DNA of 64,000 bases from Mobula hypostoma (Eukaryota): contig NC_086097.1 of NCBI RefSeq assembly GCF_963921235.1, positions 164,302,001 through 164,366,000 on the forward strand, given 5' to 3'. The notes beneath the pieces were generated by a model that saw only the letters and a program-made list of their open reading frames with translations, had not been told where the DNA came from and did not search any database. Each line of letters begins with the position of its first letter. Positions within the stretch are counted from its first letter, which is position 1. The translations under genes and the position numbers were made by a program. This document shows, in pieces, positions 1-53,406 of this stretch.

Positions 1-1484
1 TAAGTATACAAAAAAGGTAAGCCATATAAACATTAATACAATGTTAAAGTATAATAAAATTCCAAAAGATAACAATACCAAAAAGAAAATACTACAAACA
101 ATGTAATTTAAACATAAGAAACCAAGATAACATAATAGTATACTAGATTTTATATATATCAATGGAAAAAAAGAAAAAAAAAAAAAAAACCCCAAAAAAA
201 AACCCACCGTGCAACTAACTAAAAGCAAAGCAAAGCAATGGGCTAACTTGAAACCAAACAGAGTTAAACTTAAAATCACGTCCTCAATCCCGACCTCCAT
301 TAAAACAGTGAAGAGAAAACAAGAAGGGTAAATATTACATTAAATGAAAATATCGAATAAAAGGTCCCCAAATCTGTTCAAATTTAAATGAAGAATCATA
401 AAGGTTACTTCTAATTTTCTCCAGATTCAAACATAAAATCGTCTGAGAAAACCAAAAAAAGGTAGTTGGAGCATTAAGCTCTTTCCAATGTTGTAAAATA
501 CATCTTTTCGCCATTAAAGTAAGAAATGCAATCATTCTACGGGCTGAAGGGGAAAGATTACTAGAAATTTTAGGTAGTCCAAAGATAGCAGTAATAGGGT
601 GAGGAGAGATATCTATATTTAATACCTTAGAAATAATATTGAAAATATCTCTCCAAAAAGTTTCCAAAGTAGGGCAAGACCAAAACATATGAGTTAAAGA
701 GGCTATCTGCCCCGAACATCTATCACAGAAAGGATTAATATGCGAGTAAAAACGCGCTAACTTATCTTTGGACATATGTGCTCTATGAACCACTTTAAAT
801 TGAATTAGGGAATGTTTAGCACAAATAGAGGAAGTATTAACTAATTGTAAAATCTGCCCCCAATCATCTACAGAAATGGTAAGCCCCAATTCCTGTTCCC
901 AATCTACCCTAATCTTATCAAATGGAGCTTTCCTAAGTTTCATAATAATATTATAAATCATAGCCGATGCACCTTTCTGACATGGATTAAGGTTAATTAT
1001 CGAATCTAAAATATATATAGGAGGAAGCATTGGAAAGGAAGTAAGTATAGTACTTAGGAAATTTCTAACTTGTAAATATCTAAAAAAATGTATTCTTGAT
1101 AAGTTATATTTGTTAGATAATTGTTCAAAAGACATAAGGGAACCATCTAAAAATAAATCCAAAAACCGTAAAATACCCTTAGTCTTCCAAGTTTGAAAAG
1201 CGCGATCCGTAAAAGAGGGAGGAAAAAATATGTTACCTAAAATAGGAATCGCTAACCCGAATTGATTAAGATCAAAAAATTTTCTGAATTGAAACCAAAT
1301 GCGCAAAGCATATTTAACTATCGGGTTAGAGACCTGCTTAAGACGTTTCGAATCAAAAGGAAGAGAGGAACCTAAAATAGAACCAAGTGTATAACCCTGA
1401 ACAGATTGTAATTCCAATGCTACCCATTTAGGAATAAATAGTATGTCCCGATCAAGTAACCAAAATTTCATATGTCGAATATTA
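1..1484 (-). mobile_element. L1 copy 1, non-inverted 3' part (ORF2 C-terminus with CCHC knuckle plus 3' UTR; tail lies just off-window)
   Basis: Open ORF 335-1471 with CDRC..HMFWSC; about 99% identical by eye to 43060-44540. Confidence 0.93.
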
Positions 1485-3234
1485 CAGAAGTGTCTTAGAT
1501 TACAATGGTGAAGGCTGTGAATTGGTTGATTTTAACTTTTCTGTGCCCTATTTGGGCAGAAAAGTTTACTTTCGATTTCTTAATATGGCTACTAAACTTT
1601 CTTTTTAACTGCGTCATTTCTTTCTTTTCCCAGGGGATTCTGGGTGGTTACTTCCCTTTTGTCATCTTACGTATTTCCTGTGCGGCCTTAAATTTTGTAG
1701 TTTTTGTTTAAATTTTATTCTGTTTTGCTTTTTATAATCACTTTATGTTAATAATCCTATTTTTTTTTGTTGCTGTGTCTATTCATGAGTTTGAGGTTTA
1801 TTGTGGTTTTTTTTTAATATATATTTTCCGGCTTTTGTTCTGTTCTGTGTGTATTCTAATTGAGCTAACTTTTTTTTACTTATTTTTTTACTGTTTTACA
1901 ATTAGCTGATCCTTTTCATATTTATACCTTTTTTTTAGGGAGCGTATACCGGAAGTCATGGGGGTAGTTTTAGCGCTTGCTTCTTTCTGGCGGGTCTGCT
2001 TTAGATTTTGCCTTGGGGTCTTGGGCTGGGGGGTGGCGGGAGGGGCTTCACGTTTTAGTTTGTTTTTCTTTGGGCTATATACATTATTGAAGTACTGGTT
2101 GCGTCCTTTTCCCCGGTATCTTTTGTATGTTCTGTTTCCTCTCCGGGTTTGTGGGTCGCGCCTATTGTCAATCCTCCTTGTCGTGGGTTGACTTTAGGAT
2201 TTATGGAATCTATTATTAATTTTGTCTCCTGGAATACTAATGGTCTTAATCATCCTATTAAAAGAAAAAAAGTTTTTAAAGTGTTCCGGAGACTTAAAGC
2301 ACAAATTTTATTTTTACAAGAGACCCATGTACGGAGGGGGGACAGACTACGTTTTTTCAAATTCTGGAAGGGACAACAATTTCATTCGAACTCCAATGCT
2401 AAGATTCGAGGCGTCTCTATTTTTATAGATTCCTCAGTTACTTTTATACAACAGGATATTATCTCTGATCCGAATGGTAGATTTTTATTGGTTAGTGGTT
2501 TACTATTTAATAAAAAAGTAGTTTTGGTTAATGTTTATGCTCCTAATATGGATTGTCCGGAATTTTATAAATCATTGTTTGATCAGTTTCCGAATTTGAA
2601 CGAGTTTTCATTGATTTGGGGCGGAGATCTTAATACCTGTTTATCTCCAGCTTTGGACCGTTCGGCTCCTTTACGGACTTTACCTAATAAATCTGCAAAT
2701 TTGATTAATTTTTTCCTTTCTGATTCTGGGTCGACGGACATTTGGCGTTTTCTGCATCCTCAGGAAAAAGATTTTTCCTTCTTTTCACATGTTCATCATT
2801 CCTATTCAAGAATTGATTATTTTTTCATTGATTCTCGTCTCATTTCTTCAGTGATTAAATGTGATTATGATTCTATAACCATTTCGGATCATGCTCCACT
2901 TAAGCTTTCTATTAAAATTATGGCCAATATACCAAACAATAGACAATGGCGTTTTAATTCGCTGTTACTTCAGGACTCGGACTTTGTTAATTTTATGAAT
3001 GAACAGATTGAGCTTTTTTTTACAATTAACCATACAGAAGATATTTCGGTTAACACTCTTTGGGACACTTTTAAAGCCTATATTCGGGGTCAGATTATTT
3101 CGTATTCCGTTGCTTTGAGGAAGAAACAGAAGCAGGAGGAGATGGTAATTGTGGACAAGATTAAAGAAATTGATAAGAAATATGTTATGGCTCCTTCTGA
3201 GGAGCTATACAAACAAAGAACTGAACTTCAGATG
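1482..3234 (+). mobile_element. L1 copy 1, inverted arm (AT-rich spacer plus ORF2 APE endonuclease, ATG at 2203)
   Basis: Motifs SWNTNGLN, LQETH, NVYAPN, GGDLN, SRIDY, SDH; reverse complement of about 46140-47888; the ~1.6 kb carrying the RT domain is missing. Confidence 0.93.
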
Positions 3235-3340
3235 TTGGATATCCAAAGCAACACACATAAAATACTGGAAGAACTCAGCAGGTCAGGCAGCATCTATGGA
3301 AAAGAGTAAATAGTCGACGTTTTGGGCCGGGACCCTTCAG
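3229..3340 (-). repeat. Penelope-like terminal repeat fragment; insertion site of L1 copy 1
   Basis: cagatgttggatatccaaagcaacacac...gaactcagcaggtcaggcagcatctatgga...gtcgacgttttgggccgggacccttc, same family as 9305-9400. Confidence 0.75.
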
Positions 3341-4490: not shown

Positions 4491-4698
4491 TGAATATACA
4501 TATTTTAACTTTTCCTTCTAAAATCATTCACAGTGAAAGTTTAATCACTTCAGAGGTTGGAAATTAGCGAGTGATATTGCTGTCTTAGTTGCTATTTTAA
4601 GTTATTCAGAATATAGAATAAAAGTTCAGAATAAGTTTCTATCTGAATGTTTCATTTTCTCATATACTGATGTCTGGAAACTTTTAATCTGTGTGCAG

Positions 4699-4796
4699 GA
4701 CCAATGCAAGAAACAGTCTACGATTTCTGGAGGATGATTTGGCAAGAAAATACTGCTTCTATTGTCATGGTGACAAACCTGGTGGAGGTTGGAAGG
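4699..4796 (+). CDS. PTPRM: PTPRM exon, D1: [33 protein letters not shown]
   Basis: Acceptor tgtgcag, donor gtgagt; PTP DFWRM and IVMVT motifs. Confidence 0.95.
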
Positions 4797-12650: not shown

Positions 12651-14727
12651 GAGTTACAAAATACAGTTGGACTAAGATGTTAACTGTCCTGTGCTATCAC
12701 CAGTGAGATCATCAGTTGATCTGCCACCTGTTAAAGCACCACCTCCCACTGGTGAGCTTAAAAACTTGGCATCTGCCTCTATCAGAGTTGTTGGTCACTT
12801 CTATCCAACACATAGTCTGCTCTTCAGCTGTCTATGCAACTACTGAAGGGTTTGCAAGATATGTCTACACTGTCTATCTGCCCCTCTGGACATATTTGGT
12901 CCACACCCATGCTGATCCTTTCTCTGCTGCCTCAGCTACAGCCCTGCTGGTTGACTTGATCTCTCTTCTAGTGAAGCCAAGGTCACGCAGCCACTTCTGG
13001 AAAGTGAACACAATAAACCCACGGCAGCCTACTTCGAATGGATAGCATGAGACCTTCCACCCTCTGTCTCTGCACTCTGATCTTAATTCTGCATACCTGG
13101 TTAACTTGCACTCATGGGCTTCATCGATGTTGTCTTCCCAGGGGACTGTGAATTCACCAATAACCACTTCTCTACTGGTGTCAGACCATACGATTATATC
13201 TGGACGCCATGTTATGAAAACTATTTGCTCCGGGAAACTGCCTTTCCCATCCCGGTCAGCCTCAACACACCAACCGTTGGCTGAAGAAAGTATGCTTGAT
13301 CGTGAGCCTGCGCTGTACACCCTTGATTTGGAGCCTTCTTTCACAAATGATATGCGATGTTCTGTGCAGCATGGGGCACAAGATAAGTTGTGCTGCAGTA
13401 CTCTCTGCTCAACCGCTTCTGTTACAACTTTGAGAACGTTGTTATGTCTCCAAGTGTACATGCCGCTGGAAAGATTGATTCTGCATGCCCTCAAGATATG
13501 TTGAATTGTTCCCTTCTCGCCACAAACAGCACACCTGTCTGGCTTATCTTCATACCAAGTGCTGAGGTTGGCAGGTGTTGGGAGCAGATCGTACGCTGCT
13601 CTGCATAGAAAAGAAATGCGGAGCGGTTCCATCTGCCACAGAACATCTGAAGATAGATGTCGTTGTTCAACACTTTCCCACCGGGTCCAAGCCCCTTGTT
13701 TGGCCAGGCCAGCTGATACTCCTCTTCTACCTCTCGTATTTCCTGTGTTACAAGCTCACGGCACTCCTTACCTGTAGAAGATGACCACCACTTGTGGGTT
13801 GTCCGTCCAAATCCCTGGCGGCCTAGCTGGATAGCCCCAGCCATCTCCTTGTGCTTCAATCTAGACTCTGCCTCATCAACTGCTACATGGGCTGACCACT
13901 TCCTGCCTGATCTCACATCCGGCTGGGTGTTCTTGATGACAGGGTCTTTTGAGTCTCGAAGCATCAAGAATGATCTTACCTTGGCTACCTTGACCTCCTC
14001 AACAAGGGATTGCACTGGGATGGTAAGCTTTGTCTGGCTACTGTGGGTTGCAACATTGGTGAGGCTGCTCGGTACTCCAAGCCACTTCTTCACATACTTG
14101 TTGATCTTCCGTTCCATTGCCTCAACATGGGACATTGCCACTTCATAGACAGTTAGTGGCCACATTATCCGTGGCATCAGTCCGTACTGCAAGCACCACA
14201 ACTTCAACTTGCCAGGCAAGCCACACTTGTCAACAGACATCAAACCTCTGTTGATCTGTTCTCCTGTCTCTTGAACCCTCTTGGTGTCTCTCAGCTCCTC
14301 TGTGTACCATCGCCTGAGGCTCTTAACTGATTGGTCCTGAATGGATGGAATCTCCTCTCCACAAAGGGTGAAATGAAAGTCAACCAACTTTCCTCTCCCA
14401 AGAACAAGGCTCTTTGACTTATTGGTCTTGAACTTCATTCTTCCCCAATCCATTAGCTCCTCGAGTCTAGATAGTACATTTTCCACTGCCTCCGTGCTGG
14501 GACCCAAAAGCGTAAGATCGTCCCTGAATGCTCGTATTGGTGGAAACTCCTCTCCACCATCAAGTGCGACACCTGGTCCCACTGATTCTGCAGCCCTCAC
14601 AATGACCTCCATGGCTAACACAAAAAGGATGGGTGAAATTGCACATCCCATTGGGATTCCAACATCCAAGCTCTGCCACCTAGTTGTAAACTGCTGAGTG
14701 GAAAATCTCATCCGGAAATCGTTATAG
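12651..14727 (-). mobile_element. HERO-clade (R2-group, restriction-like endonuclease) non-LTR retrotransposon, 5'-truncated and frameshifted
   Basis: RT GIPMGCAISPILF and AFRDD; CAVC..HILRAC knuckle, YTWRHN, RPDI..EFTVPWEDNIDEAHECK..YPFEVGCRGF; frameshift near 13715. Confidence 0.8.
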
Positions 14728-15212
14728 GACACTGAAAGACCTAGCAGAGGAAAGTCACAGCGGTCAGGTCTCTGGCACTGAGTCTGACTCTGCAACTCAG
14801 AAGAGAATTGGGGAGAAGAGGTGTGCTGTGGTGATAGGGGATTCGTTAGTTAGGGGAACAGAAGGTCTGTGGACGAGAACAAGATTCCCTGATGGTATGT
14901 TGCTTCCTGGGTACTAGGGTCCGGGAGTGAACACCCAGTGGTCATGGTTCATGTCGGTAGGAAGAGTGGCAAGCTTCTGCAAAGGAAGTTGAGAGAGTTA
15001 GGTGCTACGTTAAAAGGCAGGGTTGTAATCTCAGGATGTTTACCATGACACATGCCAGTGGGAGTCAGAAATAGGAAGATTATACATTTTAAAATATGGC
15101 TAAGGAGTTGGTGTCAGAGGAAGGGCATAAAATTTATAGATCATTGGGCTCTCTTCCAGGAAAGGTGGGATCTGCACAGGAGATATAGTTTGCACCTGAA
15201 CTAGAAAGGAAT
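14728..15212 (+). mobile_element. CR1 ORF1 (SGNH esterase) fragment
   Basis: gctgtggtgataggggattcgttagttagggga (AVVIGDSLVRG); homologous to 59400-59960 on the - strand. Confidence 0.75.
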
Positions 15213-16077: not shown

Positions 16078-16352
16078 TGAATAGAGTAGATGTGGAAAAG
16101 ATGTCCCTTTATTCTGAGGGTGTATCCTTTGATCCAAGACTCTCTAAACTAGGAGAATCTTGGATCAAAGGATACACCCTCAGAATAAAGGGACACCCCT
16201 TTAAAACTAAGATTACCAGATATTTCTAAAGGAAGAGGGTGGTGAATCTGTGGAATTTGTTGCCACAGAGGGCTTATGAAAGTGAAGGCCCTAGATGTTT
16301 ATAAGGCAGAGATTGTTATGTGCTCAATTTTTAAGGTATTTAAGGGTTATGG

Positions 16353-24757: not shown

Positions 24758-25849
24758 CGTAACAAGGCGCAAAAATGTGTCCAGTTCTGGCTGGGCCATG
24801 TATAGACTGGCCGTGGACACGATAAGAAGAAGACCATTGCCTGGTTTCCACAGGAACAAGGCCACTCAGGCAAGGCAGCTGCCTGATTCCTGTATCTAAC
24901 TGCCTATGTGACTGCTTAAATCTGCTTTCTGTTTTACACTTTAGTGACAGTAGAATTATTTCTACAACAGGGTCCATCTTGAACAATTTTGTTCATACTT
25001 ACATGAACAAAACAGAAATCATAATCTAAAGTAAAAGTTTGGGATTATTGTTAATTTTAACAAAGGCCTTGTAAAATCTTGAGGCCAAATATGTGGCCAC
25101 ATTTCATTTACTCTGAGTAATTGGCTAAAAAGTAGTTGTCAACATGATTGAAAGTCAGCTGAAACACATCCAATGTAAACATAATTTTATTTTTGAGCTT
25201 CCAAGCACTCTTTGCATCTTTATGAAGACTATCTATGCCCATCTCTGTAGCATCATTAAATACTGTGGTACCTCATGACATCTGCCAAAACCCAGCCCTG
25301 TCTCTGGGCGTGCCTAATATCTTCCACCTTCCATGAACTTGCCACCCAGGCTTGCACCTCATAGTCACATCAAAATACATTGAGTCCCATTCACCCCAGT
25401 TCTCACTTCTCATTCTGGCCTTGAACTTAAAATTCTCCTTTTTGTTTATAAATTCATTCATAACTTCATCCTTCATTATCTTTGGGACCTTTCCTAGCCT
25501 TGTATTCCTTCAGTTCTTCTGCTGTTAAACCTACGGCTGTTCCCATCTCCTAGACTCTGTTGCCTCATTTTCCTCTGTTAACATACTCCTTCGAAATTGC
25601 CTTGCTGCCTAAATATATCCTTACATATCTTACTGCCAAATTTTGTTTGATAACCTGCCTACAAACCATTTTCTGAGCTTTTCATAAGCTGTTGCTGTTG
25701 GTTGATACAAGAAACCTCGATTGCTAAAGCCTGTTTATTTTCTTAACTTCATGTTTGCATTCCTACCTTCTGCTCTCATTGCACCAGAAATTTCCCACCT
25801 TGCATTGATATTTGCTTTGTGTCTATTCATCTAAGAGGAAACAGAGGAA

Positions 25850-26345
25850 CATCAGAATCAGGTTTATTAAATTAAAGTGAAATCTGCTGCTTTGCAGCAA
25901 CAGTACAGGACAAGACATAAGAAGTGCTGTGTTACAGAAAATAAATAAGTAAATGTGCAAAAGAAGAAAAGTGAGGTGGGATCTATGAACCAGTCTTGAA
26001 CTTAAAATTCTCCTTTTTGTTTATAAATTCATTCATAACTTCATCCCTCATTATCTTTGGGACCTTTTCTAGCCTTGTATTCCTTCAATTCTTCTGCTGT
26101 TCTTCTGCTGTCTGCCAATATGATAGCAGACGGGGAGAAACTGTTCCTAAACCACTGAGTGTGTGTATGTAGAGTCCCTTACCTCCTCCTTAATGGTAGT
26201 AACGAGAAGAGGGCACACCCAGACCATGAGGATCCCTTAATGATGAATGCAGCCTTCTTGAGGCACCCTCTGTTGAAAATGTCCTCAGTGGTGAAGAGGG
26301 TTGTGCCTGTGATGGAGCTGGTGCGTCTACAACCCGCTGCAGGAC
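25850..26345 (-). mobile_element. Rex1/Babar-like 3' fragment containing a 107-bp local insertion
   Basis: CLKKAAFIIK..ALFSLLPLRRR; tail atcagaatcagg. Confidence 0.65.
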
Positions 26346-42950: not shown

Positions 42951-43029
42951 GGTTATGGCAAAATCTCCACATTTTTAATACTCCATATTTAGGGTCGTCT
43001 TTCATAAATTTCTTTGACCATTGTAATCT

Positions 43030-46000
43030 TTTTCTTTCTTTTTAAATCTTTTTATTGAGTAAGTATACAAAAAAGGTAAGCCATATAAACATTAATACAA
43101 TGTTAAAGTATAATAAAATTCCAAAAGATAACAATACCAAAAAGAAAATACTACAAACAATGTAATTTAAGCATAAGAAACCAAGATAACATAATAGTAT
43201 ACTAGATTTTATATATATCAATGGAAAAAAAGAAAAAAAAAAACCCCAAAAAAAAACCCACCGTGCAACTAACTAAAAGCAAAGCAAAGCAATGGGCTAA
43301 CTTGAAACCAAACAGAGTTAAACTTAAAATCACGTCCTCAATCCCGACCTCCATTAAAACAGTGAAAAAAAAAACAAGAAGGGTAAATATTACATTAAAT
43401 GAAAATATCGAATAAAAGGTCCCCAAATCTGTTCAAATTTAAATGAAGAATCATAAAGGTTACTTCTAATTTTCTCCAGATTCAAACATAAAATCGTCTG
43501 AGAAAACCAAAAAAAAGGTAGTTGGAGCATTAAGCTCTTTCCAATGTTGTAAAATACATCTTTTCGCCATTAAAGTAAGAAATGCAATCATTCTACGGGC
43601 TGAAGGGGAAAGATTACTAGAAATTTTAGGTAGTCCAAAGATAGCAGTAATAGGGTGAGGAGAGATATCTATATTTAATACCTTAGAAATAATATTGAAA
43701 ATATCTCTCCAAAAAGTTTCCAAAGTAGGGCAAGACCAAAACATATGAGTTAAAGAGGCTATCTGCCCCGAACATCTATCACAGAAAGGATTAATATGCG
43801 AGTAAAAACGCGCTAACTTATCTTTGGACATATGTGCTCTATGCACCACTTTAAATTGAATTAGGGAATGTTTAGCACAAATAGAGGAAGTATTAACTAA
43901 TTGTAAAATCTGCCCCCAATCATCCACAGAAATGGTAAGCCCCAATTCCTGTTCCCAATCTACCCTAATCTTATCAAATGGAGCTTACCTGAGTTTCATA
44001 ATAATATTATAAATCATAGCCGATGCACCTTTCTGACATGGATTAAGGTTAATTATCGAATCTAAAATATATATAGGAGGAAGCATTGGAAAGGAAGGAA
44101 GTATAGTACTTAGAAAATTTCTAACTTGTAAATATCTAAAAAAATGTATTCTTGATAGGTTATATTTATTAGATAATTGTTCAAAAGACATAAGGGAACC
44201 ATCTAAAAATAAATCCAAAAACCGTAAAATACCCTTAGTCTTCCAAGTTTGAAAAGCGCGATCCGTAAAAGAGGGAGGAAAAAATATGTTACCTAAAATA
44301 GGAATCGCTAACCCGAATTGATTAAGATCAAACAATTTTCTGAATTGAAACCAAATACGCAAAGCATATTTAACGATCGGGTTAGAGACCTGCTTAAGGC
44401 GTTTTGAATCAAAAGGAAGAGATGAACCTAAAATAGAACCAAGTGTATAACCCTGAACAGATTGTAATTCCAATGCTACCCATTTAGGAATAAATAGTAT
44501 ATCCCGGTCAAGTAACCAAAATTTCATATGTCGAATATTAATAGCCCAATAATAAAATCTAAAGTTAGGTAATGCTAAACCTCCATCTCTCTTAGCTTTC
44601 TGTAAATGTATTTTACCCAGTCTCGGATTCTTATTCTGCCAAATAAATGAAGAAATTTTAGAGTCGACTTTATCAAAAAAAGATTTAGGAACGAAAATTG
44701 GTAATGCCTGAAACACATATAAAAATTTTGGCAAAAAAAACATCTTAACTGCATTAATACGACCAATCAAAGTTAAATATAAAGGAAACCATTTAGATGA
44801 AAGTTGAGTAATATGGTCTATTAATGGTAAAAAGTTAGTCTTAAATAAATCTTTATGTTTACAAGTAATTTTAATCCCAAGATATGAAAGGTAATTATTA
44901 ATCAATTTAAATGGAAATTTATAATATAAGGGAAGATGTTTATTAATCGGAAAAAGTTCACTCTTACTAAGATTTAATTTATAACCTGAGAAAAGACCAA
45001 ATTGTGCTAATAACTCTAAAACAGCAGGAATAGATCTCTCAGGATTAGAAATATATAAAAGTAAATCATCAGCATAGAGTGATAATTTATGGGACTTTAA
45101 TCCCCGAGTTATCCCAGTAATATTTGAAGATTCTCGAATAGCAATTGCAAGAGGTTCTAATGCAATATCAAATAATAGGGGACTAAGAGGACAGCCTTGT
45201 CGAGTACCACGAAAGAGAGGAAAAAAAGGTGAATTTAAAGAGTTAGTACGAACCGAGGCTACAGGGGAGTGATATAACAGTTTAATCCAGGATATAAATT
45301 TCAGGCTAAAATTAAACATTTCAAGCACCTTAAATAAATAAGGCCATTCTACTCTATCAAAAGCTTTCTCGGCATCTAAAGAAATAACACACTCAGGAAC
45401 ATTTTGTGAGGGAGTATAAACGATATTTAACAATGTACGAATATTATAAAAAGAGTAACGACCTTTAATAAAACCCGTTTGGTCTTCCGAAATAATAGAA
45501 GGAAGTACTTTTTCTAGTCTATTTGCTAATAACTTAGAAAAAACTTTAGAATCAACATTTAATAAAGATATTGGTCTATAAGATGCACATTGAGCAGGGT
45601 CTTTATCCTTCTTTAGTATTAAAGAAATTGATGCTCTATTAAAAGATTCCGGAAGTTTACCAAGTTTCAAAGAAGCCTCAAAAACCTTATAGAGCCAAGG
45701 AATCAATAAAGAAGCAAAACATTTATAAAATTCAACGGTAAACCCATCAGGGCCAGGAGCTTTCCCCAGATTCATAGAAAAAATAACATTCTTAATCTCA
45801 TCCATTGTAATGGAAGTATCTAATAAAGAAGACATATCCTGTGAAATCTGAGGAAAGTCTAACTTATCTAAAAAATCATTCATATATTTAGAATCTCGAG
45901 GAGACTCTGATTGATATAAAGAAGAATAAAAATCACAAAAGGTTTGATTAATCCCCACATGATCCAATATCAATCGATCATTTTGGTTATAAATCTGATT

Positions 46001-47860
46001 GATTTGAGATTTAACATAATTAGATTTCAATTGATTAGCCAGCAGCTTGCCAATTTTATCACTGTGAACATAAAAATCACTTCTTGTTTTCTTTAATTGG
46101 TTTACAATCGAGGACGAGAGTAGTAAACTGTGTTCCATTTGAAGTTCAGTTCTTTGTTTGTATAGCTCCTCAGAAGGAGCCATAACATATTTCTTATCAA
46201 TTTCTTTAATCTTGTCCACAATTGCCATCTCCTCCTGCTTCTGTTTCTTCCTCAAAGCAACGGAATACGAAATAATCTGACCACGAATATAGGCTTTAAA
46301 AGTGTCCCAAAGAGTGTTAACCGAAATATCTTCTGTATGGTTAATTATAAAAAAAAGCTCAATCTGTTCATTCATAAAATTAACAAAGTCCGAGTCCTGA
46401 AGCAACAGCGAATTAAAACGCCATTGTCTATTGTTTGGTATATTGGCCATAATTTTAATAGAAAGCTTAAGTGGAGCATGATCCGAAATGGTTATAGAAT
46501 CATAATCACATTTAATCACTGAAGGAATGAGACGAGAATCAATAAAAAAATAATCAATTCTTGAATAGGAATGATGAACATGTGAAAAAAAGGAAAAATC
46601 TTTTTCCTGAGGATGCAGAAAACGCCAAATATCCGTCGACCCAGAATCAGAAAGGAAAAAATTAATCAAATTTGCAGATTTATTAGGTAAAGTCCGTAAA
46701 GGAGCCGAACGGTCCAAAGCTGGAGATAAACAGGTATTAAGATCTCCGCCCCAAATCAATGAAAACTCGTTCAAATTCGGAAACTGATCAAACAATGATT
46801 TATAAAATTCCAGACAATCCATATTAGGAGCATAAACATTAACCAAAACTACTTTTTTATTAAATAGTAAACCACTAACCAATAAAAATCTACCATTCGG
46901 ATCAGAGATAATATCCTGTTGTATAAAAGTAACTGAGGAATCTATAAAAATAGAGACGCCTCGAATCTTAGCATTGGAGTTCGAATGAAATTGTTGTCCC
47001 TTCCAGAATTTGAAAAAACGTAGTCTGTCCCCCCTCCGTACATGGGTCTCTTGTAAAAATAAAATTTGTGCTTTAAGTCTCCGGAACACTTTAAAAACTT
47101 TTTTTCTTTTAATAGGATGATTAAGACCATTAGTATTCCAGGAGACAAAATTAATAATAGATTCCATAAATCCTAAAGTCAACCCACGACAAGGAGGATT
47201 GACAATAGGCGCGACCCACAAACCCGGAGAGGAAACAGAACATACAAAAGATACCGGGGAAAAGGACGCAACCAGTACTTCAATAATGTATATAGCCCAA
47301 AGAAAAACAAACTAAAACGTGAAGCCCCTCCCGCCACCCCCCAGCCCAAGACCCCAAGGCAAAATCTAAAGCAGACCCGCCAGAAAGAAGCAAGCGCTAA
47401 AACTACCCCCATGACTTCCGGTATACGCTCCCTAAAAAAAAGGTATAAATATGAAAAGGATCAGCTAATTGTAAAACAGTAAAAAAATAAGTAAAAAAAA
47501 GTTAGCTCAATTAGAATACACACAGAACAGAACAAAAGCCGGAAAATATATATTAAAAAAAAACCACAATAAACCTCAAACTCATGAATAGACACAGCAA
47601 CAAAAAAAAATAGGATTATTAACATAAAGTGATTATAAAAAGCAAAACAGAATAAAATTTAAACAAAAACTACAAAATTTAAGGCCGCACAGGAAATACG
47701 TAAGATGACAAAAGGGAAGTAACCACCCAGAATCCCCTGGGAAAAGAAAGAAATGACGCAGTTAAAAAGAAAGTTTAGTAGCCATATTAAGAAATCGAAA
47801 GTAAACTTTTCTGCCCAAATAGGGCACAGAAAAGTTAAAATCAACCAATTCACAGCCTTC
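43030..47860 (-). mobile_element. L1 copy 2: 5'-truncated (no ORF1), full-length ORF2 span with two lesions, 13-bp TSD
   Basis: TSD accattgtaatct at 43017-43029 and 47861-47873; TCT/AA cut site; AATAAA at 43051-43056 and AAAG-type tail. Confidence 0.93.
43390..47167 (-). pseudogene. L1 ORF2 (APE, RT, CCHC) disrupted by a nonsense codon at 43985-43987 and +1 A in a homopolymer near 43510
   Basis: KAPGPDG, SLDAEKAFD, GTRQGCPLSP, LYADD intact; TAA where copy 1 has AAA; A8 versus A7. Confidence 0.9.
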
Positions 47861-48224
47861 ACCATTGTAATCTAAGACACTTCTGTAAGCATGTTTAGTT
47901 CCTCCATACTTTTTTTGAAAGTAGTGGTGAAAATGATTCTTTTTCAATATCTATTGAATGTCTCATATTTGCAGGATTGAACGAAAACACATGCCAACAG
48001 TACAAAGCTTTCTGAAAGGTTGTCAATAAAATTTTTTTTTAAATTGAATTCAATAACTGAGGAACTGCAGAGGGCACTTTTCATAAACCCATTAGTGAAA
48101 ATCCTTTTGTCTGATTACTGAAACGAAATCTGGATTTATCAGGTCCCAATTGGTAGAAGTTTCAAAAGCAAGCAACATCATAAATACGATTTGCAAAACT
48201 TAAAATCAGAATGTTTGTCTATCA

Positions 48225-51044: not shown

Positions 51045-52222
51045 GTAAGGAGCTGCTTTGTGCCATGGTGAGAGAAAATAATCAATTAAAATCTTCAGAA
51101 GCGCTTTCGAACTCCACTTACCATGTCTAAACATAAGAGCTTTAGATTCCTCACTAGCACTTGACAGTAAGTTAATGATGCTGAGGAGAAGAATGAGTAT
51201 CCTGTCAGTCCTGTGAATCCAAGCATCTGAACAGCTTTGCTGGATAGTACTTACAGCTTGAAGCATTTCCAATTTTAATATATAATTATGCTCTATGGCT
51301 TCTATAGCTCTAATTGAGGGTTGTGTTAAAAATGCTATTTAAAAAGCATAAAATGAAATTTTTTCCTACACATTGCTAACATACTGTCTTAAGCTTATTA
51401 TGCTTACTGAACATAACATTGGTTGTTAAAATATTTAGACTGGGCTAAAATATTTAAAAAAGCAGCTACTGTGTGGTAAAATTCTGTTGTTTAGTAATAT
51501 GTGCTAATTGTTTGATGAAAAAAAATCTAACTTTAAGTGGTACAAGATATACTTCTAACCTCTCTTCATTACAGGTGTGGTCAGAGTTGAGAGGGTGGAT
51601 CTCAGCCACTGTTCTCACCAGTTATTTTTTTCTCAATTTAAACAGTATTGTCATGCAATTAGGAGGCATTTAACTGATTCAATTTTAACAGGAGCTTCAA
51701 GTGAAAGGGCAGCTTCATAATTGTCAACTTATAAATCTATCCTCTTAGTGACTGGTATAGTGAAATAAATTAGGCATTGTATATTGGCAGGAGAATAGAG
51801 TGGAATTTAAAACAAGATACCCTGGAGGACTAATGACTGTTCTGGTCATTGTCTTTAAGATAAAGTGGGGCAAACCATGGAGATATGGATTGGGGATGGG
51901 AAAGAAGAACAGGGTGATTTTGGTGACTGGAGGTTTCTTAACCATTCCCAAAGCTTGCTTACTTTGGGAAAAGCAAATGATGGTTTAGTTTTCATATGTT
52001 GATCATCTATAATCCCAGTTGAGGTGATTTGCTAGCCAGCTTGTCCATCTTATTGTTACAATAATCAACCATGCATTGCTCCAATAAAACCACCTACCTT
52101 GGCACCTGATCATCAAAAACTTTTCTAAACGCTATTAGTGCAAAGGTTTTATTTAATTTTCTAATATACTGCTCGTAGAATTTTAATTTAGTGCACCTTG
52201 CTGATGTATTGAATAGTAAATA

Positions 52223-52814
52223 TGAGGGGTGATTGATAAGTTCACGGCCTAAGGTAGAAGGAATCAATTTTAGAAAACCTAGCACATTTATTTTTCCTAC
52301 ATTTACACACTTAGTCCAGTGGTCATGGAGCATACGGATCCCTTCTTTGTAGAAGTCAGTGTCTTGGACCTCCAGAGCACAGCAGGGGTGATTGATATGT
52401 TCGTGGCCTAAAGTAAAAGGAGATGAGGAGACCTTCTGCATTTTCACTCAGTGAGTTGAACTGCACGTGCATGTAACGAGAGCAATATAACTCATCACCT
52501 TCTACCTTAGGCCACGAACTTATCAACCACCCCTGCTGTGGACCATCTGGAGGTCCAAGACGTTCTCGTTACATGCACGTTACATACATTCTTTGAGTGA
52601 TAACGCAGAAAGCTTGAAGTTAATAACTCATCGCCTTTTACCTTAGGCCATGAACTTATCAATCACCCCTGCTGTGGACCACTTCTACAAAGAAGGGATC
52701 CGTATGCTCCACGACCGCTGGACTAAGTGTGTAAATGTAGGAAAAATAAATGTGCTAGGTTTTCTAAAATTGATTTCTTCTACCGTAGGCCACAAACTTA
52801 TCAATCACTCCTCT
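52223..52814. mobile_element. Non-autonomous mariner derivative, palindromic, five TIR copies, TA TSD
   Basis: TIR gaggggtgattgataagttc..ggcctaaggtagaagga; TA at 52221-52222 and 52815-52816; transposase C-terminus FYKEGIRMLHDxWTKCVNVG in both arms. Confidence 0.88.
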
Positions 52815-53406
52815 TACTCAGCAGATTAAGCAGCATCTGTGTAGAAACAAATCAAGTTAAAGTTTCGAATCCATGGCCTTTCTCCAGAACTGGAAAAAAT
52901 TGAGATGTCATGTCATAAAATGCAGAGAAGGTGGGGAAGAAAGATGAAAATACAAGGGAAAATCTGTGATAGAGTTAAATGCAGGAGATGCCAATTATTA
53001 TTTAATTTCTCCTCTCCTCTTCCCAATCACTTTTTGTTCTCACCTCCCTTTCTCTGCATGCTCTTTACCAAAGGTTTTTCCCAATTCTGACGAAAACCCA
53101 TTTATCTGAGGCAATAACTTTCCTTGTCTCCCTTAACAAAAATGCCTGCTTAATTTTACCTTCCCCATATTTTATGTTGGAGCTTAGATTTCTCATAGTA
53201 TTTTGCTTTACATGTTTCTATAGAGGACAGATAAAATCGTTGGTTTATATTTGCTTGAAATTCTGTTATTGGATAGGAAAAGAGCGTTTTTACGTTCTAC
53301 ACTAAGTGGAAAAGGGTTGACACACACAATAAAGGAATACAGAGAGCTCAGTAAATAATTAGTTAAGTTTGCTTAATGACTTTTATTTCCTTTTGTGTCC
53401 ATTCAG

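Follow-up and report, generated by a model that had tools for sequence, protein, structure and literature searches.

Chimeric L1 elements and intrachromosomal duplications were reportedly described by Gilbert and colleagues in 2005. L1 copies with an inverted 5' end are attributed to twin priming, according to the model of Ostertag and Kazazian (2001) as presented in later work (10.1101/2024.08.27.596794; PMC11702581), and for human insertions of this kind the median deletion is given as 14.5 bp (10.1101/2024.08.27.596794). Templated insertions, for which an SDSA-like model is cited, number 22 in tumours, where they are typically shorter than 250 bp and lie within 15 bp of the site (10.1101/2024.08.27.596794), and three in L1-expressing cells (PMC11702581); L1 chimeras made of two RNAs have likewise been catalogued (PMC13174262). 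In addition, a human inverted L1, NCLI34 (Sen et al., 2007; PMC1920257), contains a 377-bp middle segment that matches another L1 downstream on the same chromosome, and repair-mediated duplications of about 150 bp, with donors mostly within 5 kb, are described as vertebrate-wide, the proximal ones examined there being without retrotransposition marks (Pace et al., 2009; PMC2671141).

The window analysed here, that is, the whole stretch of 64,000 nucleotides of Mobula hypostoma, opens with a very young 5'-inverted L1 (copy 1, 1-3230) surrounded by a 15-bp target-site duplication (TSD). Our results indicate that 1.0-1.25 kb of its inverted arm come from a second L1 of the window (copy 2) and its border, and were likely acquired in the course of the insertion. 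In a self-comparison of the window, 1-1484 matches 43060-44540 of copy 2 directly, with 98.25% identity and in the same orientation, and 1482-3234 matches 46136-47888 inverted and gap-free, with 99.43% identity and 10 mismatches; about 1.6 kb of L1 is absent between the arms, and the trinucleotide TTA at 1482-1484 is common to the 3' arm and to the captured flank. The original prediction had described this layout, which is confirmed. The non-inverted arm (1-1484, minus strand) comprises the end of ORF2 and the 3' UTR, and the final 29 bases of the tail together with the left TSD copy lie directly before the window start. The TSD, AGATGTTGGATATCC, is found 44 to 30 bases before position 1 and again at 3230-3244 (plus strand), where its first base is shared with L1 and the L1 end falls at 3229/3230. 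A TSD upstream of position 1 had been anticipated, beginning cagatgttgg; it is there, with A as its first base instead of C. As for the ca-atg match between target and L1 proposed for about 3229-3234, the target end at the internal priming site agrees with L1 at one base exactly, or at four of five with one mismatch.

As expected from twin priming, the TSD encloses both arms and a tail marks the 3' end. Two further marks of that process, arms derived wholly from one L1 RNA and closely spaced arm breakpoints, are not those of copy 1: 2739-3230 and the 3' arm comply with the former, 1482-2503 derives from copy 2, and the breakpoints are separated by the 1.6-kb gap. Across the family copies surveyed (L066-L224), target sites are mostly Y/R steps (TT/AG, TT/GG, TT/GA) with TSDs of 9-20 bp, and the tails are of the (GAAA)n type and not pure poly(A).

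Over 1482-2557, copies 1 and 2 are identical at 1076 of 1076 positions, and the identical tract spans the TSD of copy 2, 15 bp of its flank and two of its private alleles. The first 28 bp of this tract (1482-1509, plus strand) are captured non-L1 DNA, exactly the reverse complement of 47861-47888 (minus strand) as claimed beforehand, and consist of 15 bp of copy 2 flank (1482-1496, corresponding to 47874-47888) followed by the 13-bp TSD of copy 2 (1497-1509, corresponding to 47861-47873). Thereafter, 1510-2503 (plus strand) carries copy 2's own 5' junction (GA), the spacer and the start of ORF2. The 28 bp are not shared by many family copies, a circumstance that had been named as fatal to the idea: a 21-mer over flank and TSD occurs at exactly two sites in the 3.48-Gb assembly, copies 1 and 2, and upstream of 1512 all 27 of the other copies compared (28 were fetched, one lacking the search key) share a different family sequence, which rules out that the 28 bp belong to the family. 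The 8-mer with which the captured flank begins (1482-1489) also matches the full-length relative L110 near 6432, where it occurs just once in the L1 sense strand, 65 bases from the 3' arm breakpoint; the nominal chance of this is about 1.6% before hindsight, and we give it no weight.

The alleles 1529A and 2208A are common to copies 1 and 2, all 28 other copies having G. Exact patterns containing 1529A and 2208A each occur at two sites genome-wide, which excludes a third copy or an unsampled sub-lineage as donor, and the family allele at 2208 occurs at 1,180 sites. Copy 2, 45 kb away, is thus the donor among at least 1,180 copies, which supports the view that proximity mattered. The copy 2 flank and private alleles are found in no other copy beyond copy 1, so copy 2 has left no offspring. 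The mismatches between the inverted arm and copy 2 fall at 2558, 2739, 2781, 2826, 2845, 2967, 3023, 3087, 3146 and 3231; the gap-free alignment bears out the earlier counts of a single difference (2558) in 1482-2738 and of eight in 2739-3230, and the densities of 1/1257 and 8/492 differ with a Fisher p of 2.5e-4 at a breakpoint picked post hoc. In line with a templated insertion, the segment is identical to a resident locus, the donor is intact (copy 2 is complete, with both TSD copies), entry was through homology, with a seamless switch in 2504-2738, and exit was through the TTA microhomology.

The remainder of copy 1 belongs to another L1 subfamily. We defined set A as the 19 copies matching the ends of copy 1 and set B as the 20 matching its spacer, the two being separated at 53 columns. 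Copy 2 is B at 37 of the 38 columns that it covers. Copy 1 is B at 19/19 columns up to 2503 and A at 4/4 thereafter, and its 3' arm is A at 6/6; the spacer and endonuclease region, whose invariance across the family would have refuted the idea, thus holds 19 subfamily-diagnostic sites. Both A parts share three rarer alleles with the sister copies L066 and L067, from which they show no substitution (0 in 1,513 + 727 bp, 2,240 bp in all, when compared with L067). The ORF2 part of the 3' arm differs from copy 2 by 13 synonymous and 3 non-synonymous changes, as had been counted, and the earlier suggestion of a different master element finds support in its A state as compared with the B state of copy 2.

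A single, clean change from B to A takes place within 2504-2738 (plus strand), an interval equal to L066 and L067 and differing from copy 2 only at 2558, and 2739-3230 (plus strand) follows from a subfamily A master of the same sub-lineage as the 3' arm. Copy 1 lacks both 2558T and 3087T of copy 2 and, given the absence of the former, the switch probably lies in 2504-2557; the original prediction was right that template had changed, the position it gave (2738) being one end of the range allowed. No comparable block switch was found in 79 other copies scored at the 53 sites, of which 39 had served to define the sets and all had been picked as best matches to one segment, nor does the pattern of copy 1 recur in any of the 74 loci of a position-ordered sample. 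The latter sample contains further sub-lineages with interleaved patterns, so the division into A and B is a simplification.

Taken together, these data support copy 1 as a mosaic of a subfamily A master and the resident copy 2, and not as the product of ordinary twin priming, since the tract and its markers come from copy 2 and the rest from another subfamily. Transfer from copy 1 to copy 2 is ruled out, because the flank and the TSD belong to copy 2, which is B throughout. A 5' transduction from copy 2 followed by divergence is ruled out as well, given that the 3' arm and 2739-3230 are A and copy 2 is B.

Copy 2 (43030-47860, minus strand) is a 5'-truncated subfamily B element that lacks the 5' UTR and ORF1, has a premature stop in ORF2 near 43985 and is bounded by its 13-bp TSD, the 3' copy of which lies at 43017-43029 (minus strand). 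Its full-length relative L110 (5.9 kb) places the family in the L1 clade, with an ORF1 of 299 aa bearing the L1 RNA-binding domain (PF02994) and an ORF2 of 1258 aa bearing an APE endonuclease (PF03372) and a reverse transcriptase (PF00078). Private substitutions number about 9 in the 4.8 kb of copy 2, and copy 1 shows none in 2.2 kb (at the rate of copy 2, Poisson p=0.017), so copy 2 is the older resident. The copying postdates two mutations of copy 2, since 1529A and 2208A lie in the tract. Insertion and copying are inseparable in time, given the zero substitutions in 2,240 bp and in 1,076 bp, a count that sets an upper bound on age and nothing more.

The wider family gives a measure of how uncommon this structure is. 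Among 152 distinct other loci, 12 copies are 5'-inverted; the arm breakpoints are at most 120 bp apart in 11 of these, the twelfth (L223) having a 3.2-kb gap, and non-L1 sequence of more than about 10 bases was seen at none of the 12 inversion junctions. Inversion is thus ordinary in the family, a large gap uncommon and capture of a neighbour rare. Copy 1's own 1.6-kb gap is unusual both by this standard and by the human median of 14.5 bp. The exceptional copy, L223:4554-5595, is twin-primed; its inverted arm measures 143 bp, a short word is repeated at the junction, and the TSD is short (a 7-bp TSD-like repeat). In L153, L170, L172 and L209 the inverted arm reaches the 5' end of the element, so that no part of the element is missing and just its front is inverted. 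L203:5408-6006 is an isolated internal piece of 600 bp from a young subfamily (99.7% identity to L110), and neither a tail nor a 3' arm was found in the 10 kb covered; an insertion by break repair is possible. Three close pairs (L145-L146, L147-L148 and L149-L150) were considered as neighbour captures and rejected, being nested insertions in which a full-length L1 sits inside ORF2 of an older full-length family copy. They lie near 29.40, 47.74 and 168.77 Mb of contig C1 of the assembly (G000), at element positions of about 3310, 3470 and 3020 of 5.9 kb, and three nested pairs among the 88 C1 places listed are seemingly above the expectation from even spacing.

The host gene encodes a receptor-type protein tyrosine phosphatase (PTP). 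An exon of its first phosphatase domain is found at 4695-4796 (plus strand), and further PTP exons occur near 27.6, 30.1, 37.1, 40.8, 42.1, 50.9, 53.4 and 63.1 kb, all on the plus strand, so that copy 2, on the minus strand, is antisense to the gene. At least six exons separate the target and donor introns. A motif search of the 20 kb upstream of copy 1 revealed no host exon, and copy 1 is placed in an intron because the next exon is an internal one. The original prediction had named the host gene PTPRM, with copy 2 antisense in it; by sequence comparison the name gains modest support, PTP-mu scoring best among single-domain entries for the first exon (60.9 bits, as compared with 58.4 for T and 53.6 for kappa). 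Other repeats of the window include two self-inverted repeats, probably small DNA-transposon-like elements, at 52221-52816 (about 600 bp, 74% identity) and 16102-16195 (94 bp, 91% identity), and a 107-bp direct repeat with 97% identity at 25420-25526 and 25995-26101, 575 bp apart. At 12877-14849 (minus strand), frames of 452 and 293 aa resemble, by eye, a reverse transcriptase with a restriction-like endonuclease tail, as in a decayed non-LTR element.

Sequencing runs were compared as short-word contigs, in which holes in cover prove nothing. In the comparison of 1445-1565 with runs X1, X2, X3 and X5, the 5' junction of copy 2 is covered by an unbroken 2.86-kb contig in X1-X3, and the depth over 1485-1509 equals that of the one contig of the copy 2 junction. 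No contig bridging the inversion junction of copy 1 appears among 30 of the 177 pieces listed, a hole of the kind that carries no weight in such contigs. Assemblers drop short low-depth links beside very deep repeats. When the whole of copy 1 was compared with X1, X2, X5 and X6, family contigs dominated, and no empty-site joint is present among 15 of the 387 listed. In X5, which comes from another organism with flanks about 1.6% different, 1485-1565 is without cover, again a hole that proves nothing, and the empty sites did not turn up in the contigs compared.

We consider it somewhat better than an even bet that the internally primed cDNA of copy 1 invaded the DNA of copy 2, continued beyond the 5' end of that copy and was then joined at the TTA microhomology. 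The anatomy of copy 1 shows that a subfamily A RNA was inserted at a staggered cut, giving the 15-bp TSD, one arm of 1.5 kb primed at the tail and a second arm that would have been primed at the L1 position of 3230. This second arm follows A for 0.5-0.7 kb and then copy 2, whose 5' junction it crosses before running on for another 28 bp. Once released, its 3' end may have annealed to copy 2, which lies 45 kb off and shares about 98.5% identity with it, and host repair synthesis would have extended it there or corrected it to the donor in a one-sided, SDSA-like manner. In a twin-primed intermediate each of the two free ends is antisense to L1, which leaves the extended strand without a complementary partner; by this geometry it would have to be finished by end joining, here at TTA. 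Such a course predicts a seamless entry within homology, an exit at short microhomology and no damage to either the donor or the TSD, and each of these is seen. In addition, the rewritten stretch stops exactly at the inversion junction, that is, at the free cDNA end, and the RNA-derived arms, 1.51 and 0.5-0.7 kb, equal the medians of 1.51 and 0.54 kb given for human twin priming (10.1101/2024.08.27.596794). The 1.6-kb gap calls for no later deletion, since L223 combines a 3.2-kb gap with a short TSD. On the other hand, the tract is longer and its donor farther off than in the published templated insertions and in most repair-mediated duplications, copying soon after insertion would give the same final sequence, and simple extension does not explain the stop 28 bp past homology, for which clipping of a longer cDNA flap together with short synthesis would, as an untested possibility, account. 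The proposal rests on one case. The original prediction spoke of homology-guided local capture by an L1 RNP; the neighbour was indeed the donor, and host repair is likelier to have been the agent than the L1 RNP.

The most substantial competitor, which we regard as unlikely, is an ordinary twin-primed insertion that soon suffered a break, or a stalled fork, across the inversion junction; repair would then have invaded copy 2, an inverted repeat of the copy 1 arm, from one side and joined the end by microhomology, with the loss of 1.6 kb from the 3' arm. This would deliver the tract, the flank, TTA and the large gap in one step; NCLI34 has been read in the same way (PMC1920257), and proximal capture with microhomology is described as common in vertebrates (PMC2671141). 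It demands a second rare event in a time too short for one substitution in 2,240 + 1,076 bp, none of the 79 other copies scored at the 53 sites is a block mosaic, and L223 has its large gap without any donor tract. An assembly artefact, in which the 5' end of copy 2 was built into copy 1, is conceivable given that the two loci are near-identical repeats, and is very improbable: the window has no Ns, the element measures just 3.3 kb between unique flanks that bear the TSD, the junction shows microhomology, copy 1 lacks 2558T and 3087T, and the subfamily changes once, inside homology.

Two further routes would use RNA as the second template. The template put forward in the original prediction, nascent host pre-mRNA, would require that the tail-primed cDNA jumped via TTA to just past copy 2, copied it in the sense direction and annealed to the second cDNA, with pairing between the incoming L1 RNA and the antisense copy as a tether, as may be the case. 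The orientation of copy 2 relative to the host exons suits this, as predicted, the start of the tract just outside homology would be accounted for, and L1 insertions from two RNAs are known (PMC11702581; PMC13174262). We hold it to be improbable and the weaker option: at least six exons lie between the target and donor introns, it needs an internal jump on 3 bases, DNA strand invasion yields the same structure by a known pathway, and the 1,076-bp tract has no A-to-I footprint, since not one of its 470 T and 226 A positions differs. Editing is expected of a 4.8-kb RNA duplex. Edited inserts have been reported for 3 of 235 pseudogenes (PMC11702581). If the pre-mRNA route were true, intronic antisense L1s would both tether new insertions within their gene and supply the template for them. 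Least probable of the accounts weighed here is a local sense transcript of copy 2, started in its upstream flank and serving as second RNA, to which the internally primed cDNA switched by homology before running off its 5' end. A 5' end near 47888 would account for the stop 28 bp past the junction, and the polarity suits continuous synthesis of the second cDNA; yet copy 2 is without 5' UTR and ORF1 and has left no offspring, and if the template was a diffusible RNA, nothing accounts for a target just 45 kb off.

Copy 1, as it stands in the assembly, provides an unusually clean natural record of an insertion intermediate, or of a just-inserted copy, exchanging sequence with its nearest relative. 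Unique markers fix the donor, the direction, the interval of the switch and the point of exit. Events of this kind offer a route for recombination between L1 subfamilies, and they duplicate the TSD and flank of one element at a distance of tens of kb, a possible source of error when subfamilies are dated or elements are annotated by their TSDs. Copy 1 itself is one dead intronic copy with no sign of function. The side on which the donor lies and its orientation relative to host transcription afford a genome-wide test between DNA and RNA templates. A literature search, with most subscription papers and the supplements of two preprints outside its reach, returned no case of the exact form of copy 1.

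The kind of event is known from SDSA-type chimeric L1s, templated insertions and NCLI34. Copy 1 resembles twin-primed insertions in its discrete 15-bp TSD, inverted 5' arm, junction microhomology, arm lengths and perhaps in a target end that nearly matches the RNA, and departs from them in that two thirds of the inverted arm do not come from the inserted RNA, non-L1 DNA stands at the junction and 1.6 kb is missing. With the SDSA-type chimeric L1s and templated insertions it would share a nascent cDNA that quits its RNA and copies nearby genomic DNA, which is duplicated in one insertion; unlike the published templated insertions, which come from tumours or cultured cells, it has a donor at a distance of 45 kb, a copied segment of about 1.1 kb that sits in the internally primed arm, and it is found in the genome assembly of a non-mammal. 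Similarly to NCLI34, it is a truncated and inverted L1 whose middle segment is best matched by an L1 of the same chromosome. NCLI34 is assigned to the endonuclease-independent class, its identity to the donor is 98%, and the segment was attributed to gene conversion at a later time (PMC1920257), whereas copy 1 has an intact TSD and a 100% match that includes the TSD and flank of the donor. Repair-mediated duplications, too, are conservative copies of proximal DNA with microhomology at the junction, and differ from copy 1, which has one end in long homology inside a fresh L1. In this regard, what is new here is a genomic, non-mammalian case with a donor known base by base, located 45 kb away and copied at the internally primed arm.
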